A DNA stretch of 64,000 nucleotides. Origin: Dictyostelium discoideum (taxonomy: Eukaryota). Both the position numbers and the translations under genes were made by a program. How positions within the stretch are numbered: the stretch's first letter is position 1; the number at the start of each line of letters is the position of its first letter. The stretch spans positions 5,568,001 through 5,632,000 of the forward strand of contig CM000152.2 in NCBI GenBank assembly GCA_000004695.1, in the 5' to 3' direction. Under the pieces are notes generated by a model. The model was not told the origin of the DNA and searched no databases. It was given only the letters and a program-made list of their open reading frames with translations. This document shows positions 4,492 through 17,237 of the stretch, piece after piece.

Positions 4492-5808
4492 TTTGGGTTA
4501 AATGATATTAATATATAAATAGAAGTGCACATGATTGAGAGAGATTTCAATATTAATTTTTAACAAAAATTGGATGATCAACGAATCATACAATTTAAAT
4601 ATATAATTTTTATCATCTCACACAAAAATACACACTAACACACCCCAAAAATACAAAGAATTAAATTCTAAAAAAAATAAAAATAAAAATAGAAAATAAA
4701 AAAAAAAAAAAAGAAAAAAAAAAACACTATTTTTTGATATTGGATTATTAAATATATATATAAAAATTTTATTATTTTTTTTTTTTATCTGTTTTCTATT
4801 CTTTGTTAAGTTTTTTTTTTTTTTTATTTCTTGTGGAATTTGCCTTGATTTAAAAGAACAAAAAAAAAAAAAAAAACACCTTTTTATAAATTTTTTTTAA
4901 ACTATTATTATAATATATTTCCATGTTTAAAAAAAAAGACACTTTTTTTAAAACAAATAATTTTTTTTTTTTTTTTTTTTATTTTAAAAATTTTACAATT
5001 ATTTGTTTTAGAGCGATTGCCTTGTGAAAAAATAATTTTTAAATTAAGTTTAAAAAAAAAGACACTTTTAAATTAAATTGTTATATTCAAACACAAATAA
5101 ATAAAAAAAAAATAAAATAATAATAATAATAATAAAATGTTAATATAATTTTTTATTCGTAGATTTTTATTTATTGTTATTTTTTAAAATCTATTTGTTT
5201 TCGGATCTTTTTTTTAAAAAAAAAAAAAAAAAATATGTGAATATATATTTATATATATTTTTAAAAATAAGGATAAACAAATGGATTGTCAACTGATCAG
5301 TTTTTTAAAAAAAAAAAAAAATACCACAACAATGGTTTTCAACTGGCAAATTGCAAATTTTATTTTTATTTTTTTTTTATTTTTTTATTTTTTTATTTTT
5401 TTTATTTTTTTAATTTTTTATTTTTTTATTATTCTTCACCTGCGATATTTGAAACAGTTAAATTTCCTTTAAATAGTATAATTTTTATTTATTATTATTT
5501 TTCCCCTTCTTTTTCAAATATGTATAATTAAAATAAAAGTAAAGTTTTTTTAATATTATTATTTATTTTTTTTTTCTCTTATATTTGATCAAAAAAAAAA
5601 ATAATAATAATAATAGTAATAATAATAATAATTAAAAAAAAATAACATAAAAAGAAAAGAAAAAAAATATTCGAAAATAAAAAAAAGAAAAAATAATTAA
5701 AAACAGATAATAACTTAAATTTTGTTTAGTGTTTTCAATGTAATGAACTATTTAAATTAATTTTGGTGTTCTTTGAAATTTGAACCGTCAAAAAAAAAAA
5801 TCATTTTT

Positions 5809-8768: not shown

Positions 8769-10232
8769 CTATATAAAGATAAGTTCTTTTACATTTGGTA
8801 AATCATTTTCTTGAATTATATGATCATATAACCGATTACAAATTGTTAATGATTTTACAGAAGGAATAATAAATGTGTCAAGTTTTTTATTAAAACTAGA
8901 ACCCAATTCTAATGATTCAACCAAAGGTATTACATTAATTGGAATATCTTGATTAAATTTATAACCTAATCTTAATTTTTTAATTGAATCCATGGATCCA
9001 ACTATTAATGGTTTATTAAATTCTGCACCAAGTTTTAAATATTTTAAATTATTAGGAAGATAACCTTTGTTAATTGATTGATTATATCTATCACCCAATA
9101 TTAATGAAGTTATTGAAGTTGATGATAGATTTGCATTTTCAAGTGGTTGATCAAAACAATAACCAAGTTCTAATGATATAATTGATTTTGGAATAGAGTA
9201 TGATTGTAACATTTGGTTAAAAATTCCTGTAATTGATAATGATGTACAAGAATTTGGTATTGAACCTTCAATTAGTGGTTTATCAAATGATACACCTAAA
9301 AATAAATCAACAACAGAGTTTGGTATTGAATTTGGTAAAAGGTTTTGATTAAAATTACTTTTAAATGTTAATTTTAATAAAGAACAAGGTAAATCACCTG
9401 GTGAAATTGGATGATTAAATTTTGAAAATGTTAAATCTGTAATGGATTGACCAAATGAATTTGCTATGATTGGTTGTGACCAACCATTTCCAAAATAAAG
9501 TGTTTTCAATTGTGATGGAAGTTGACCAATTTGAATTTGTTGATTGAAATTATTACCAAATATTAATGTAGTAATACAAGTTGCACCTAAATTTGCATTC
9601 TCTAATGATTGATTAAATGAATGACCAAAATTTAGTAATGTTAAACTTTGTGGTATTGAATATTCTACAATGGGTTGATTAAATAATAAACCAAATTCTA
9701 AAGTTTCCAATTGTTCAGGTAAGCAATCTTGTTGAATTGCTTGATTAAATATTGAAAATCTAATAGTTTTAACTGAATTTGGAATTGATCCATATGATAA
9801 CTGCTCATCATATCCTAATAAATTCAATTCTGTAATGGAGTCTGATTCAAAATATCCCTCTCTTAAATATCTCTTAAAATTTGGAAGTGATAGTTTAGTT
9901 ATTGATTTTGGTAATTTAATTGTTGACGGTTCCATATTATCCAAAATAATAATTGATTTTAAAAAATTTTTATTTTTATATTTATTTAATCTTTTTATAT
10001 CTAAAAAGGTTTTTTCATTCTCACCTATTCTTTCAATCGTACCTTTTAATAATTGATTTGAAATAATTTTTCTTAAATATTTATTTTTCCAAATTTTATT
10101 ATAAAATAATTCACCAATTTCATTATCATTTAAAATTTTAATCAATTGATTTTCTTTATTATCATTCCTAATTAATTTAAATATTAAACTATATTCTTTA
10201 ATAATTATAATTGTACGATTTCTATTATTCAT
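8769..10232 (-). CDS. FNIP-repeat protein (Dictyostelid-specific ~22-aa repeat family), single exon.
   Basis: The 487-aa ORF has about 15 tandem copies of the F-N-x-P-(I/L) repeat unit (LKFGxxFNQPIxxGxLPxSLxxL). FNIP repeats are characteristic of Dictyostelium. Confidence 0.8.
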   Translation of the reverse strand: MNNRNRTIIIIKEYSLIFKLIRNDNKENQLIKILNDNEIGELFYNKIWKNKYLRKIISNQLLKGTIERIGENEKTFLDIKRLNKYKNKNFLKSIIILDNMEPSTIKLPKSITKLSLPNFKRYLREGYFESDSITELNLLGYDEQLSYGSIPNSVKTIRFSIFNQAIQQDCLPEQLETLEFGLLFNQPIVEYSIPQSLTLLNFGHSFNQSLENANLGATCITTLIFGNNFNQQIQIGQLPSQLKTLYFGNGWSQPIIANSFGQSITDLTFSKFNHPISPGDLPCSLLKLTFKSNFNQNLLPNSIPNSVVDLFLGVSFDKPLIEGSIPNSCTSLSITGIFNQMLQSYSIPKSIISLELGYCFDQPLENANLSSTSITSLILGDRYNQSINKGYLPNNLKYLKLGAEFNKPLIVGSMDSIKKLRLGYKFNQDIPINVIPLVESLELGSSFNKKLDTFIIPSVKSLTICNRLYDHIIQENDLPNVKELIFI

Positions 10233-10386
10233 TTTTTTAAACTAAAATAAAAAAAAAAAAAAAAATCAAATCAAAAAAAAAGTAAAAAAAAAAAAAAAAA
10301 AAAAAATCATTGAGAGTTTTAAATTTAAGTTTTTTCTAAAAAAAATCATTGAGAGGAAAAAAAAAAAGGTAACCAACCTATTGATT

Positions 10387-10523
10387 CCATCAGGCTTATT
10401 TTCGTCATCACTTATTAACAAAATGATATTGCCCCATAAAATTGTTACAAAATGGAAGAGGTAACAATTTTATGAGGCAATATTATAATGCTAATAAGTG
10501 ATGACGAAACTAAGCTTGATGAT
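10387..10523. repeat. Long imperfect inverted repeat (hairpin). Arms ~61 nt at ~88% complementarity, 12-nt loop aaaatggaagag. It is embedded in a relatively GC-richer non-coding block (~10380-10760).
   Basis: Left arm: catcaggcttattttcgtcatcacttattaacaaaatgatattgccccataaaattgttac. Reverse complement of right arm: catcatcaagcttagtttcgtcatcacttattagcattataatattgcctcataaaattgttac. The flanks are A/T homopolymers. No conserved ORF lies across it. Confidence 0.6.
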
Positions 10524-11875
10524 GATAAAGGAAATTTTAAAAAAAAAAAAAAATCCTCGTTATTTATGATTTCTTCTGATACATCATCGAGACACCATGC
10601 CAATGCCACCATCCTATCTGCCATATCTTCCAAGGCAGGTTTGCCTCATTGAAAGAATTGTACTCCAAGTTTCTGGTTGTGAAAACTGAACTATCACCAC
10701 AAATTAACAAGAAGCTCCTCCATTTTCTTGGGATAATTTCCAAATATTGATAAAAAAGATGTTTGCAAAATTTGCCATTTAAATTATTTGATGTGTAATT
10801 ACATTTTTAAAAAAAAACAATTTAAAATATATTTATATTATAATTAATTACTTATATTTGTTAATGATTATTTTATTTATATTTGTTAATAAAATAAAAA
10901 ATAAGGGAATTTTAAAAGAGCTTTAAATAGTTTCTTGATTTACAACGAATTCAAATTTTTAATTTTATTAAATTTTATTTTAATTATTTTTTTATTTATT
11001 TTATTTTAATTTTTTTTTTTTTTTTTTTTTTGAAATTCAATGGTTATGGATATTTATTTAACAAATCAAATTATTTAAAAGGTATGTTAATTTATTGATT
11101 ATTTAAAAGGTATGTCAATTTTTTTATTGATTTTCTATTTTAATTTAAAAAGTTTTTAAAATCTTTTGGGAAAATGAAATGGAACAAAAAAAAAAAAAAA
11201 AAAATAACTTAATAATATTTAAATTATTTATTATTATTTTTAATATAGAGCCTAAGTTTATTAAAAAAAAAAAAAATTCATTAACTCCCATAACCATAAT
11301 CTAATCAAATAAATCAATATTTATCAGTTATCTTTTGGAAAATGAATAAAAAGTAAAAAATAAAAATAATTTAAAAACAATAGTAAGGAAATTCAACCAA
11401 TATTTAATTTTATTTACCCCCTCACCATATTAAAAATAATTATTATTTTAAGTTATTATAACTAAAGATAAAAAAATTATTATTAATATTAAAGTAATAT
11501 TATTAGTTATGGATTCAAAGTGAAAAATAAAAAAAAAGTAAAAAAAACTGGATTAAAAAAAAAAAAGATCACCTGAACACCTTAAAGAAAGATTGGAGAG
11601 AAGATTGAATGCATTACAATTAGGTGTAGAAATTGGTAATGAATATAGAAATGATAAAGTTAGACAATCACATAGGGGACTCCAACATTTTCAAAAGAAC
11701 AATATCAATTATTGGTTACCATTGTTGTTGAATTGGTTAAAAAAAAAACAAAATTTAGGTATGAATGAAATTGCTCAATTTCTTAATAATAATCAATTAA
11801 ATAAATAAAAGAAAAATAAAACTTTTTTTTTTTTTTTGGCGAGTTGTAAATTAAAATTTTATTTACTGTGTTGTT

Positions 11876-13670
11876 TTAACAAGATGGAGTGCCAGTTATT
11901 GGAGTGAGTGATGTTGATCTTTGGATGTAACCAAATTGGTGAGCACCATTTACAGGGATTTCACCTAACCAACTTGGGAGTTTGTAATTGTTGGTTGAGG
12001 TTTGATCAGCATTCCATATGTCTTGAACGTTTTGTAATTGGAAGTTGAAACCTCTTACTGGTTTAGAACCTTTGTTATTGATGGTAGCATCAACTTGAAT
12101 ATAGTAAACATTGTTACTGTACCATTGATTAATAATCTTTTGGGTAACATTTGCTGAACACGCTGATGGAGTTGGACTTGGTGTTTGAGTTGGGGTTTGT
12201 GTTGGTGTTTGTGTTGGGGTTTCAGTTGGTGTTTGTGTTGGGGTTTCAGTTGGGGTTTGTGTTGGAGTTTGAGTTGGAGTTTGAGTTGGTGTTTGAGTTG
12301 GAGTTGGGGTTTGGGTTGGGGTTGGAGTTGGAGTAGTTGGTTTAGTTGGTTTAGTGTTACCAAAGTATCTGGATGGTCTTGGGCATTCTCTGGTCCAGTT
12401 TTCTTTATTGTTTGGAAGAAAAAAAAAAAAAAAAATAATAATTAGTTTATATTATCTTTTTTTAAAAAATAATAGATTAAAAAAAAAATGAAATAAATAA
12501 TTACCTTGACAAACTGGTACAACACTCCAGCCTCCAATGGTACCACAAAGACTTGGGAAAAATGTATCGGTAATATTTTCTAAAACTCCACCAATTAAAA
12601 CAGTATTATGATTAATACCATAACCTAATTTGAAGATTTCATTGGCATCCATTGGTAATTGATTGAAGCAACGTTCGCAATACATAACTGAAACATATGA
12701 TGCAAAAATAACTTTATCAAATTTAGTCCACATGGCAGCTGCTGAGCACCTATTTTTTTTTTTTATTAAATTATGAAAAAAAAAAAAAAATATTAATAAG
12801 AATAAAAAAAAAAAAAAAAAAAAAAAACAATTTAATAAAATAAAATAAAAAACATACATTGGACATGGTTCACCAGTAGTATACAAATAATGATCTTCCC
12901 AAGTAGCTTTACCATAGAGATCAGTGCTATATTTATATGAATTTAGTTAGAAATATTTAAATTTTTCTTTTTTTTTTTTTTTTTTTCTTTAAAAAAAAAA
13001 TCTTCCAAAGAAATAATAATAAATAATAATAATAATAATAACTTACCAATTCATGATGGCTTTAACTTCACCATGATACATTCTTGAACCACCAGTGTTG
13101 GCACCAGTACACATTAAAGTACCGTTTTTGTGAACAATAGCAGCACCAAATTTAGAATTATTCTCAACAGCAACATTAATTGCACTAATATTTAAAATAA
13201 AAAATATATTTTAGAATAAAAAATAAAAAATAAAAAATAAAAGAAAAATAAAAGGAAGTTGATATATTTACATTCTCATATATTTTGCATGGAATTGTTG
13301 ATCATCCTGTAGTTAATATAATTATTTTAAAAGTTAATAATAATAAAAATAATAATAACAATAATAATAATGTGTAATAACAATAAAGAAAATATAACTT
13401 ACTGGCGATAAATCTTTGAATTGAGTTAAATCTGACTATATGTTTTGATTGATAAAAAAAAAAAAAAAAAATGAAAAATTAGTTTTTTTTTTTGCAAAGC
13501 AAAAATAAAAGAAAAAATGTGTAAAAAAATAAAAAAATAAAAAAAAAAAAAGATTAATAAATTACAGGTGCAATATCGAAATAAGCTGATTTTGGACAAT
13601 TGTTTTTATGTGCTTTTGCAGTTGAAAAAGCAATGATTAATAAAATTAATAAAGAGTAAATTAATTTCAT
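11876..13670 (-). CDS. Secreted CDA-fold (cytidine/deoxycytidylate/TadA-type zinc-dependent) deaminase fused to a Thr-Pro-Gln linker and a C-terminal Cys-containing carbohydrate-binding-like domain. 7 exons, approx 13670..13566, 13435..13403, 13306..13272, 13183..13046, 12926..12857, 12749..12505, 12402..11876.
   Basis: Exon 1 encodes the signal peptide MKLIYSLLILLIIAFSTAKA. The deaminase core reads KFGAAIVHKNGTLMCTGANTGGSRMYHGEVKAIMN...YLYTTGEPCPMCSAAAMWTKFDKVIFAS. This carries the H(A/G)E ... PCxxC zinc motif and aligns with TadA (VGAVLVHNNR...HAEIMAL...LYVTLEPCVMCAGAM). It is followed by (TPTQ)n and ...ACSANVTQKIINQWYSNNVYYIQVDATINNKGSKPVRGFNFQLQNVQDIWNAD...LPSWLGEIPVNGAHQFGYIQ...TPSC*. 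Donors are GTAATT, GTAAG and GTAAAT. There is a possible 1-nt ambiguity in my reading of exon 5. Confidence 0.65.
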
Positions 13671-15349: not shown

Positions 15350-15939
15350 ATGACATTCTTGAGTAAAAAACCTCAAATATTTAAAAATATTGAAAAAGAT
15401 ATAAATAAAATAAAATTTAAAAAATCAAATAAAATAAAATCAGATTGTAATAATAGTAATAATAAAAATGGTTTGATAGAGTGTATATCAACTTTAGAAG
15501 ATGATAATCCATGGGATGTTTATACCAAAATAATGAAAGAAGAAGGATTTTTAAAAAGTTGTATATTAGATTTAAATGATGGTGAAGTTAATAGTAGTAG
15601 TGGTGCATCACCATTAAATGTTGCATACCAAGAATACCAAGAAATTAAAAATATTTTGGAAGGTAATAATTCAATTTATATAAATTGTGACTCAACTAGA
15701 TTCTTTATATCAAATTCAAATGACATAATGATTACTGGTATAAGTTCAAATTCATTATCATTCATATTACGAAGAACTGCAAATAAATGTATTATTGGAA
15801 TTTTTCAACCTTCAACAATTCTAGTCGACCATGCTCATTGTAAAGTCTCTGATATTTATAATAAAATTACAAATTTTGATAAAAATGAAAGAATTACAAA
15901 TTTAATTTTTTCATTCTCCGAAGATAGTATAAAAAATAT

Positions 15940-15949
<10 letters not shown>
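15350..15949 (+). CDS. Profilin-like domain protein, paralog 1 (199 aa). N-terminal K/N-rich extension plus C-terminal profilin fold. Single exon.
   Basis: WDVYTKIMKEEGFLKSCILDLNDGEVNSSS...RFFISNSNDIMITGISSNSLSFILRRTANKCIIGIF...VSDIYNKI aligns with the profilin signature (W..Y.D.L......AAI.G.DG.VWA.S ... KY.VI.....VIRGKKG.GGITIKKT.QALV.GIY). The N-terminus MTFLSKK is shared with the two paralogs. Confidence 0.65.
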
Positions 15950-16484: not shown

Positions 16485-16595
16485 ATGTCCTTTTTAAAAA
16501 AAAGAAAGAAGAAATCAACATCAACACTAACATTAAATAGTAATAGCAATAATTCTAATATTGTTTGTGTAAATAATAATAATAATAATAATAAT

Positions 16596-16656
<61 letters not shown>

Positions 16657-17235
16657 TAAATAGTCATGGTATCAATTTAATAATTAATAAAAAAATTAAA
16701 AAATTAACATCAAGTACAAGTTGTCCAAATATGTTAACAATAAAAGAAGAAGAAAATGAAAAATATAATAATAATAATAATAATAATTCCGATAATTTAA
16801 ATGATAATTTAAAAGATACAATAATATTAAATTGGAATAAATATACAGATAAATTAATAAAACAAGGTTATTTAGAATGTGGTATTTTAGATTTAGATAG
16901 TGGTGAATTAAATAGTAGTAGTAGTTGCAATAGTAGTATTAGATTTATAATTAGTTATCAAGAATGGCAAGAAATTAAAAATATTTTACAAGGTAGTTAT
17001 TTAACAACAATAAGTTGTTCAAAAAAAAGATTCTATGTAGTTGCCTCAAATGATTTCATAATTGCTGGTCGTGATTCTCAAAATCAATCTTTTATTCTTA
17101 GAAAAACTCAAACTAAAGCAATCATTGGTATATTTAATATGAATAAATTACAAATTGATGATGCTCATAAACTATTAAATGATTTATATAATGAAATTAT
17201 AAAAGATGATAAAACTGAAATTTATCCAGTTGAAT

Positions 17236-17237
<2 letters not shown>
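16485..17237 (+). CDS. Profilin-like domain protein, paralog 2 (250 aa), with a poly-Asn N-terminal extension. Single exon.
   Basis: MSFLKKRKKK...(N)n...WNKYTDKLIKQGYLECGILDLDSGELNSSS...RFYVVASNDFIIAGRDSQNQSFILRKTQTKAIIGIF...LNDLYNEI. It shares the architecture of 15350..15949 and lies ~540 bp downstream on the same strand. Confidence 0.65.

Follow-up and report, generated by a model that had tools for sequence, protein, structure and literature searches.

A predicted secreted deaminase fused to a cellulose-binding-type CBM49 module in Dictyostelium discoideum and its possible link to folate deamination

Cells that steer by gradients of their own making, through destruction of a uniform attractant, are best studied in the folate chemotaxis of Dictyostelium. 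The enzyme that destroys cyclic AMP, PdsA, has been cloned; the deaminase that destroys folate was described biochemically around 1980 and its gene was not cloned, so folate chemotaxis has not been genetically dissectable. In a 64,000-nucleotide stretch of Dictyostelium discoideum DNA (contig CM000152.2, positions 5,568,001 to 5,632,000; "the window" below, whose numbering is used for its coordinates), a seven-exon gene on the minus strand encodes a zinc deaminase of the cytidine deaminase (CDA) fold with a signal-type leader, joined through a Thr/Pro-rich linker to a C-terminal cellulose-binding-type module of the CBM49 family. Taking predicted secretion, disulfide bonding, glycosylation, retention on cellulose, and substrate class together, the product is probably an extracellular, cellulose-tethered small-molecule deaminase.

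The folate deaminase activity of D. discoideum is both secreted and found at the cell surface, has a molecular weight of about 40,000, inactivates the attractant followed by vegetative cells, and is the basis of their self-generated gradients. As of 2021 the enzyme was "yet to be cloned," and no newer report of its gene was found in the literature. The gene adjacent to the one described here is DDB_G0282257 (EAL66334.1/Q54SS2), and the accessions just before it, EAL66333.1 and Q54SS3, are those of DDB_G0282255, named as a "carbohydrate-binding domain-containing protein"; from the adjacent accessions and the dictyBase product name, we infer that the fused gene is DDB_G0282255 of strain AX4. Because dictyBase already lists both domains for DDB_G0282255, the architecture is annotated at the domain level and is not itself a discovery. 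No functional study of the gene was found in the literature, where its sole in-text mention is a 2010 microarray table that gives 0.40-fold expression in growing lrrB- cells. What is new in the present analysis is the proof of the gene model, the conservation of the fusion, the placement of the enzyme in an exported lineage, the fit of its expression to matrix retention, and a candidate link of its family to folate deaminase.

The gene model is real, and the fusion is conserved across the D. discoideum clade. The surrounding sequence is AT-rich, as is typical of Dictyostelium, and the single-exon product of a neighboring gene identifies the window as D. discoideum. The spliced coding sequence is 1,152 nucleotides (nt) long and in frame, encodes 383 amino acids (aa), and has GT..AG boundaries at all six introns. 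The annotation of assembly GCA_054883475.1 gives a 383-residue product on an identical 1,795-bp segment. The parts of the gene, all on the minus strand, are as follows.

11876..13670, minus strand: whole gene (DDB_G0282255/Q54SS3 ortholog), start to stop codon; spliced model of 7 exons, 383 aa
13566..13670, minus strand: exon 1 (aa 1 to 35), from the sequence, with a leader conserved in orthologs and paralogs
13611..13670, minus strand: predicted signal peptide MKLIYSLLILLIIAFSTAKA, codons 1 to 20, cleavage predicted before HKNN (MKLIYSLLILLIIAFSTAKA/HK)
13403..13435, minus strand: exon 2 (aa 36 to 46), with AG/GT flanks; 31 of 33 nt conserved and free of indels in 5 other genomes
13272..13306, minus strand: exon 3 (aa 47 to 58, ending in phase 2), from the spliced model and comparison with orthologs
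13047..13184, minus strand: exon 4 (aa 58 to 104), with catalytic H95-G-E97 at 13075-13067 and the substrate-pocket residue Asn87, from the sequence and family alignments
12858..12926, minus strand: exon 5 (aa 104 to 127), with P124-C125-P126 and the first two bases of M127; its intron-5 site is common to paralogs
12505..12749, minus strand: exon 6 (aa 127 to 209), with zinc ligand C128, W134, the YCERC motif, the TadA-like NH..V.I.GVL, and the Cys-rich tail, from alignments
12868-12858 and 12749-12746, minus strand: PCPMC codons, split by intron 5, from the spliced model
11876..12402, minus strand: exon 7 (aa 209 to 383 and stop), a single exon with the deaminase tail ENWTRECPRPSRYFGN, linker, and CBM49
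12164..12355, minus strand: Thr/Pro-rich (TPTQ/TPTE)n linker (aa 225 to 288), with a 12-nt unit repeated 14 times at 12167-12334
11879..12160, minus strand: Cys-framed CBM49 module (aa 290 to 383, C290 and C383), with the Pfam PF09478 match at 12151-11921
11876-11878, minus strand: stop codon TAA, from the spliced model

Between window positions 5350 and 25950, alignment with GCA_054883475.1 (L001) shows many small indels in intergenic homopolymer runs, so the window stems from a D. discoideum assembly close to that one but distinct from it. Syntenic loci of five related genomes were reached through orthologs of the neighboring gene, and their exons were rebuilt one by one. A seven-exon fused gene occupies the syntenic slot in all five (two D. 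cf. discoideum lineages, D. citrinum, D. dimigraforme, and D. firmibasis), with rebuilt lengths equal to the annotated ones (391, 403, 399, 401, and 395), AG/GT at all junctions, and no internal stops. Across the orthologs, exons 1 to 6 contain no indels and all six introns contain them, the sole exonic indels being in frame and within the linker. Deaminase-only paralogs have one or two introns, which match introns 1 and 5 of the fused gene in both position and phase; the intron-5 position and phase are common to paralogs P0001, P0003, and P0004. In these paralogs the HGE..NCT..PCPMC residues are contiguous or broken solely at the intron-5 site, and the proteins run through the other junctions uninterrupted. 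Because a single exon, exon 7, encodes the conserved deaminase tail (...CPRPSRYFGN) together with the linker and CBM49, the fusion is independent of any splice. An artifact joining two separate genes is essentially ruled out by this shared exon, which has no stop, and by annotation of the same seven-exon fusion in six genomes.

The protein consists, in order, of the leader, a 30-residue N-terminal extension, the CDA-fold core, the Cys-rich tail, a 64-residue linker, and a 94-residue module. Pfam dCMP_cyt_deam_1 (PF00383) matches residues 51 to 143 with 64.9 bits (E=6.6e-18; cutoff, 25), and CBM49 (PF09478) matches residues 293 to 369 with 88.3 bits (E=4.2e-25; cutoff, 23.4), covering profile positions 2 to 79 of 80. 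H95-G-E97 and P124-C-P-M-C128 lie within one reading frame of the spliced product and are invariant in 16 family sequences, so that the catalytic H and E and both zinc Cys residues (C125 and C128) never vary; N87 is nearly invariant in the family alignments. The three-layer alpha/beta/alpha deaminase fold is present, and in a structure model of paralog P0001, which is 77% identical to the fused deaminase, the Cys-rich C-terminal tail is of low confidence. A single-sequence AlphaFold2 model of the CBM49 module is all-beta with 7 strands at a mean predicted local distance difference test score of only 58.8. Among five ortholog pairs, the ratio of nonsynonymous to synonymous substitution rates (dN/dS) is 0.06 to 0.16 for the deaminase and 0.16 to 0.58 for CBM49, and deaminase protein identity across the clade is 95 to 98%, D. 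firmibasis included. Both domains are under purifying selection, the deaminase more strongly.

The hydrophobic N-terminal leader is kept in all orthologs and paralogs; it was judged by eye as a signal peptide, with the cleavage site taken from the −3/−1 rule and not computed. The mature polypeptide has a predicted mass of 40.2 kDa, 12 Cys residues, and six N-x-S/T sequons. Eight conserved Cys residues lie outside the zinc site in the Dictyostelium family and are missing from its bacterial relatives; together with HGE in place of HAE and a YCERC...PMDANEIF insertion, they are the family-specific traits. This pattern of extra Cys residues fits a secreted, disulfide-stabilized protein. Linker length varies from 64 to 84 aa among orthologs, always in frame. 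The initial annotation, made without database searches, had proposed the seven exons, the signal peptide, a zinc deaminase with TadA/guanine/cytosine-deaminase affinity, the TPTQ linker, and a C-terminal module reminiscent of cellulose-binding domains, and each of these parts is upheld here, the module proving in the HMMER/Pfam check to be specifically CBM49. The same annotation had made its proposal depend on the exon 4/5/6 joins placing HGE and PCPMC in one frame, which they do, and on carbohydrate-binding homology at the C terminus, which was found.

By sequence, the core is assigned to the TadA/guanine deaminase/cytosine deaminase clade and is distinct from TadA. Its catalytic core is significantly similar to that of the CDA-fold guanine deaminase GuaD (phmmer E=9.6e-9; profile, 81.2 bits), and similarity to blasticidin-S deaminase is much below that to the TadA/GuaD group. 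In B. subtilis GuaD the C-terminal residues Asp114 and Tyr156 cap the substrate and are supplied by the partner subunit. The hidden Markov model alignment of the Dictyostelium protein to GuaD ends at about profile position 151 and does not extend to a comparison of D161 or the tail. Identity with TadA was rejected, since the NCBIfam TadA equivalog NF008113 scores 20.4 bits against a cutoff of 150 and the protein has a signal-type leader, 8 extra Cys residues, CBM49, and co-accumulation with secreted matrix proteins, all of which point to secretion. No amidohydrolase family was matched in Pfam and NCBIfam scans of the protein, which might act like an amidohydrolase-type pterin deaminase but does not belong to that class.

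AX4 has at least four deaminase-only paralogs at other loci (DDB_G0272030, Q8T1Z7, DDB_G0282171, and DDB_G0272442), 224 to 241 aa long and all with leaders. Deaminase-only orthologs occur throughout the D. discoideum clade and in D. purpureum, and a neighbor-joining tree, whose bootstrap values are unreliable for rooted clades, weakly places the fused clade as sister to D. purpureum 58458. Among ~186,000 scanned genomes of bacteria and archaea, the nearest prokaryotic relatives are 26 to 40% identical (best, 37 to 40% over ~150 residues) and come from Alphaproteobacteria, Streptomyces, Polynucleobacter, Methylocystis, and cyanobacteria. These bacterial proteins score 41 to 57 bits on the TadA equivalog (cutoff, 150), and no NCBIfam family claims them. 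Twin-arginine translocation (Tat) or hydrophobic leaders, such as MAMKCGRRPLLFGTIAALSTRVTPASA and MIDRRSFLLSATSAIALQPSASVA, are present in at least 36 of 80 bacterial relatives, and from these leaders the subfamily appears to be a family of periplasmic or extracellular deaminases. Examples of the Tat-leader subfamily among the loci L012 to L091 lie at L012 2884-3468, from Labrenzia alba, and at L020 2911-3480 and L016 342-908. The bacterial gene neighborhoods examined for a functional hint were not conserved.

Since the closest bacterial relatives share the signatures of the Dictyostelium enzymes and many carry export leaders, the Dictyostelium enzymes fall within an exported lineage of CDA-fold deaminases. 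Membership in such a lineage favors a small substrate, outside the cell or in the periplasm, over tRNA. Gene transfer from bacteria is a plausible origin of the Dictyostelium family.

The CBM49 half of the protein has many relatives in other settings. When 1.8 billion representative proteins were searched exhaustively with HMMER, 45 CBM49 relatives emerged, the best at 42% identity. None of the 45 is fused to a deaminase, in keeping with the earlier description of the architecture as unusual; the fused gene's own cluster is missing from the collections, so other fusions may be hidden. All 8 relatives that were domain-scanned contain CBM49, accompanied by papain proteases (I29 propeptide), a GH5 cellulase, or domains of unknown function. 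A word-index homology search with the module returned no matches. The fused protein and its orthologs (L002 to L006) are absent from the protein collections, and the called genes have no precomputed Pfam record despite strong matches. In the dictyostelid papain-family proteases P0010 and P0018, the I29 propeptide is separated from the catalytic domain by one or two CBM49 modules, a further case of CBM49 tying an enzyme to cellulose. Dictyostelids thus use CBM49 generally to anchor proteins in the matrix, and a deaminase is an uncommon thing for it to carry; cellulose binding has been reported for other Dictyostelium CBM49 proteins.

Expression differs between transcript and protein. In growing cells, DDB_G0282255 mRNA has an average expression (AveExpr) of 9.97 log2, by far the highest within the family (about 10 versus about 3 log2), and drops 2.4-fold on exposure to Klebsiella. 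In a 2026 life-cycle proteome of cell pellets, the protein was undetected in vegetative and aggregation samples, reached 4e5 in one mound sample and ~2e6 at culmination, and rose about 40-fold to ~9e7 in fruiting bodies. The same study places it in cluster 5 with ecmA, expl7, and CBM49 cellulases and lists it as "cellulose binding." The supplements of the DPF paper, checked for a secretome entry, held no match to the gene.

A mechanism that accommodates both sets of measurements can be proposed. The cleavable leader would take the enzyme into the secretory pathway, up to four disulfides could form from the eight conserved Cys residues outside the zinc site and would probably stabilize it, and the (TPTQ)n segment, probably O-glycosylated, would link the deaminase to CBM49. 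The linker may act as a spacer, because its composition and not its length is conserved. To our knowledge, growing amoebae make no cellulose. During growth, without cellulose of the cells' own, an abundant product would leave as soluble enzyme and be lost from washed pellets; from the slug stage on, cellulose of the sheath, stalk, and spore coat would capture it via CBM49. Retention by CBM49 on newly made cellulose would account for the build-up in fruiting bodies, and a protein soluble in growth and retained in development would reconcile the mRNA with the proteome. Stated in full, the proposal is that DDB_G0282255 encodes a secreted zinc-dependent CDA-fold aminohydrolase, predicted to be catalytically competent, that acts on a small extracellular heteroaromatic amine and not on a polynucleotide; with the folate or pterin reading included, we put this full statement at somewhat less than an even chance.

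In folate deamination the 2-amino group is taken off a 2-amino-4-oxo ring, the same chemistry as that of guanine deaminase. As a compound with this ring, folate or a pterin is the leading, though tentative, candidate for the substrate. In its favor are the predicted export of the family, its relationship to GuaD, the high transcript level of the fused member in growth, and that member's predicted mature mass of 40.2 kDa; further circumstantial evidence comes from the paralogs. In the RNA-seq comparison of folate with control by Lamrabet et al. 2020 (Table S2), 27 genes passed the threshold (>4-fold), 26 of them repressed. The repressed genes include the paralogs DDB_G0272030 (−4.13, the strongest) and DDB_G0282171 (−2.91), beside pdsA, grlG/far2, grlH, and grlA; by our own arithmetic, the chance of finding two of the five family members in the folate-repressed list is roughly 1e-4. 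Lamrabet et al. 2020 do not comment on the two deaminase paralogs. A paralog of the DDB_G0282171 type also stands head-to-head with genes for Bmp+7tm_3 proteins (Grl-type class C G protein-coupled receptors), one gene in D. firmibasis and two in tandem in D. purpureum. The receptor and deaminase genes of this conserved neighborhood are as follows.

L010 6155-8578, minus strand, and 10001-10912, plus strand: receptor/deaminase neighborhood
L009 2722-8658, minus strand, and 10001-10720, plus strand: receptor/deaminase neighborhood

The flanking ML-domain gene DDB_G0282177 was the sole neighbor of DDB_G0282171 that was matched. On the folate or pterin reading, the fused gene and its deaminase-only paralogs would be the uncloned folate/pterin deaminases that shape self-generated attractant gradients. 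A further and slightly more doubtful step is that these five enzymes might descend from the bacterial exported lineage, with the CBM49 isoform serving as a nondiffusing, cellulose-bound sink that sharpens or records self-generated folate gradients.

Several observations weigh against folate or a pterin as the substrate. The fused gene lies outside the folate-regulated list, in which only its paralogs appear, and their regulation is repression, not an obvious fit to an enzyme that cells would need in the presence of folate. Protein levels are highest in fruiting bodies and not in the feeding stage, when folate chemotaxis matters. Agreement of the predicted 40.2 kDa with the ~40 kDa of the activity is weak, as glycosylation raises apparent size and a dimer of a ~23-kDa paralog would come to about 40 to 46 kDa. 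The characterized pterin deaminases have the amidohydrolase fold and not the CDA fold. Pterin/folate deaminase activity is also reported from Polysphondylium violaceum and D. lacteum, whereas a word-index search, less sensitive than HMMER, found no member of the family described here outside group-4 Dictyostelium. The Grl gene next to DDB_G0282171 is probably a gene other than that of the folate receptor grlL (DDB_G0281211). The C-terminal half of the deaminase aligns better with TadA than with GuaD, and sequence and fold together do not tell adenine, guanine, cytosine, and pterin substrates apart.

The same secreted, tethered enzyme might act on an ordinary base or nucleoside (guanine, guanosine, cytosine, or adenosine), either for salvage of prey nucleic acid or as a source of ammonia in the fruiting body. 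We regard this as unlikely, given that extracellular adenosine deamination is already assigned to the unrelated ADGF and that base or nucleoside salvage would leave unexplained why two paralogs occur in a short folate-repressed list with pdsA and the Grl receptors. The options in the initial annotation ranged from extracellular salvage or signaling enzymes to toxin-type deaminases, and it is the salvage and signaling options that are now better supported.

An improbable alternative is a matrix-bound detoxifier of base or nucleoside antibiotics from soil microbes, guarding stalk and spores in the manner of blasticidin-S deaminase or the ammeline/s-triazine deaminase Msmeg3575. Very high mRNA in axenic growth would be unexpected for a fruiting-body protectant, the similarity to blasticidin-S deaminase falls far below that to TadA/GuaD, and no substrate is indicated.

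Likeness to secreted deaminase toxins, also suggested initially, did not hold up. The idea of an extracellular DNA or RNA deaminase with an antimicrobial or toxin-like role, on the pattern of secreted bacterial deaminase toxins or of the vertebrate secreted AID/APOBEC-like deaminases (SNADs), would draw on a match to Pfam MafB19-deam (PF14437; 35.5 bits versus a cutoff of 27), on a TadA-like fold with the C-terminal NH..V.I.GVL, TadA itself being an RNA editor, and on the predicted secretion of the protein. The MafB19-deam match is generic and not toxin specific, as E. coli TadA, run as a control, scores 138.1 bits on the same model. The Pfam scan of the protein matched no SNAD/AID-APOBEC or other toxin-deaminase model. 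No toxin context was found either, whether a delivery or pretoxin domain in the protein, whose other parts are the signal peptide, linker, and CBM49, or an immunity-like gene among the neighbors, which are FNIP-repeat and profilin-like genes. A five-member family of housekeeping-like enzymes under constraint as strong as that of the deaminase domain is also unlike an arms-race effector. A toxin deaminase was rejected on these grounds, and a polynucleotide effector in general seems very improbable to us.

Hardly credible is a noncatalytic matrix protein that uses the deaminase fold as a binding or structural module, or a faulty gene model: UniProt and the 2026 proteome paper do regard the protein as nothing more than a matrix protein that binds cellulose, but the invariant H95, E97, C125, and C128 and the stronger constraint on the deaminase than on CBM49 speak against the former, and the single stop-free exon for tail, linker, and CBM49 and the six genomes with the same fusion speak against the latter.

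For a folate or pterin deaminase, the analysis would supply a small set of candidate genes with leaders and a relationship to GuaD, of which the fused member is highly expressed in growth and two others are co-repressed by folate with pdsA and Grl genes. If the proposal is true, degradation of an attractant would be fixed on cellulose, either that of the amoeba's sheath, stalk, and spore coat or soil cellulose of plant or bacterial origin. Independent of folate, dictyostelids and bacteria, the latter mostly with Tat leaders, have in common an extracellular lineage of CDA-fold small-molecule deaminases; it includes the single fusion of CBM49 with a nucleobase-type enzyme that the analysis turned up; and an abundant fruiting-body protein is now filed merely as "cellulose binding."

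Other features lie near the deaminase gene. A near-perfect 61-bp inverted repeat at 10388-10521 (arms, 10388-10448 and 10461-10521; 12-nt loop) lies between an FNIP-repeat gene and the deaminase gene, on the 3' side of the latter, in a GC-richer intergenic patch with no called gene. Its folding energy is −73.4 kcal/mol (z = −16 versus shuffles), Rfam gave only subthreshold matches to generic microRNA-precursor models, and the repeat may represent a precursor of hairpin or small RNA or else a foldback element. Two tandem, fast-evolving profilin-related genes (Pfam Profilin in orthologs) lie at 15350-15949 and 16485-17237 on the plus strand, one of them being DDB_G0282257. The DDB_G0282257 product is 200 aa in AX4 and 199 aa here, and its D. 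firmibasis ortholog is 68% identical, versus 95% for the adjacent deaminase domain. DDB_G0292096, outside the window, has an entry in the supplement of PMC12821622.

Among known systems, the folate/pterin deaminase activity (Pan & Wurster 1978; Bernstein et al. 1981) is hydrolytic, is produced by growing cells, and has a molecular weight of ~40,000 against the predicted 40.2 kDa, whereas the fused protein peaks late in development. ADGF is likewise a secreted Dictyostelium deaminase with a developmental role exerted through a small diffusible substrate and ammonia, but it has an unrelated amidohydrolase/ADA fold and no carbohydrate-binding module (CBM). The CDA-fold guanine deaminase (B. subtilis GuaD, PDB 1WKQ/1TIY), the yeast cytosine deaminase Fcy1, Nitrosomonas NE0047, and plant guanosine deaminase are cytoplasmic and have no leader, disulfide Cys residues, linker, or CBM. 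Compared with GuaD, the Dictyostelium protein has HGE in place of the usual HAE, and the C-terminal substrate-capping segment is not demonstrable where the alignment stops (~residue 151). It differs from the TadA/ADAT2 tRNA adenosine-34 deaminases in having a leader, and hence predicted secretion without access to tRNA, the YCERC...PMDANEIF insertion, and the Cys-rich tail. The bacterial exported CDA-fold deaminases (e.g., that of Labrenzia alba) share R.YHGE..A..NC and LYTTGEPCPMC(M)SA..W with the Dictyostelium enzymes; they carry Tat/Sec leaders and not a eukaryotic signal peptide, and have no extra Cys residues, linker, or CBM49. The other end of the protein resembles CelB, St15, EcmC/D, the GH5/GH9 cellulases, and the CBM49-papain proteases, all of which have the same C-terminal Cys-framed CBM49 after a Thr/Pro-rich linker. 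As with the fused deaminase, the Dictyostelium CBM49 matrix and wall proteins accumulate late, in cluster 5; what sets the fused protein apart from them is its partner domain, a nucleobase-type deaminase.

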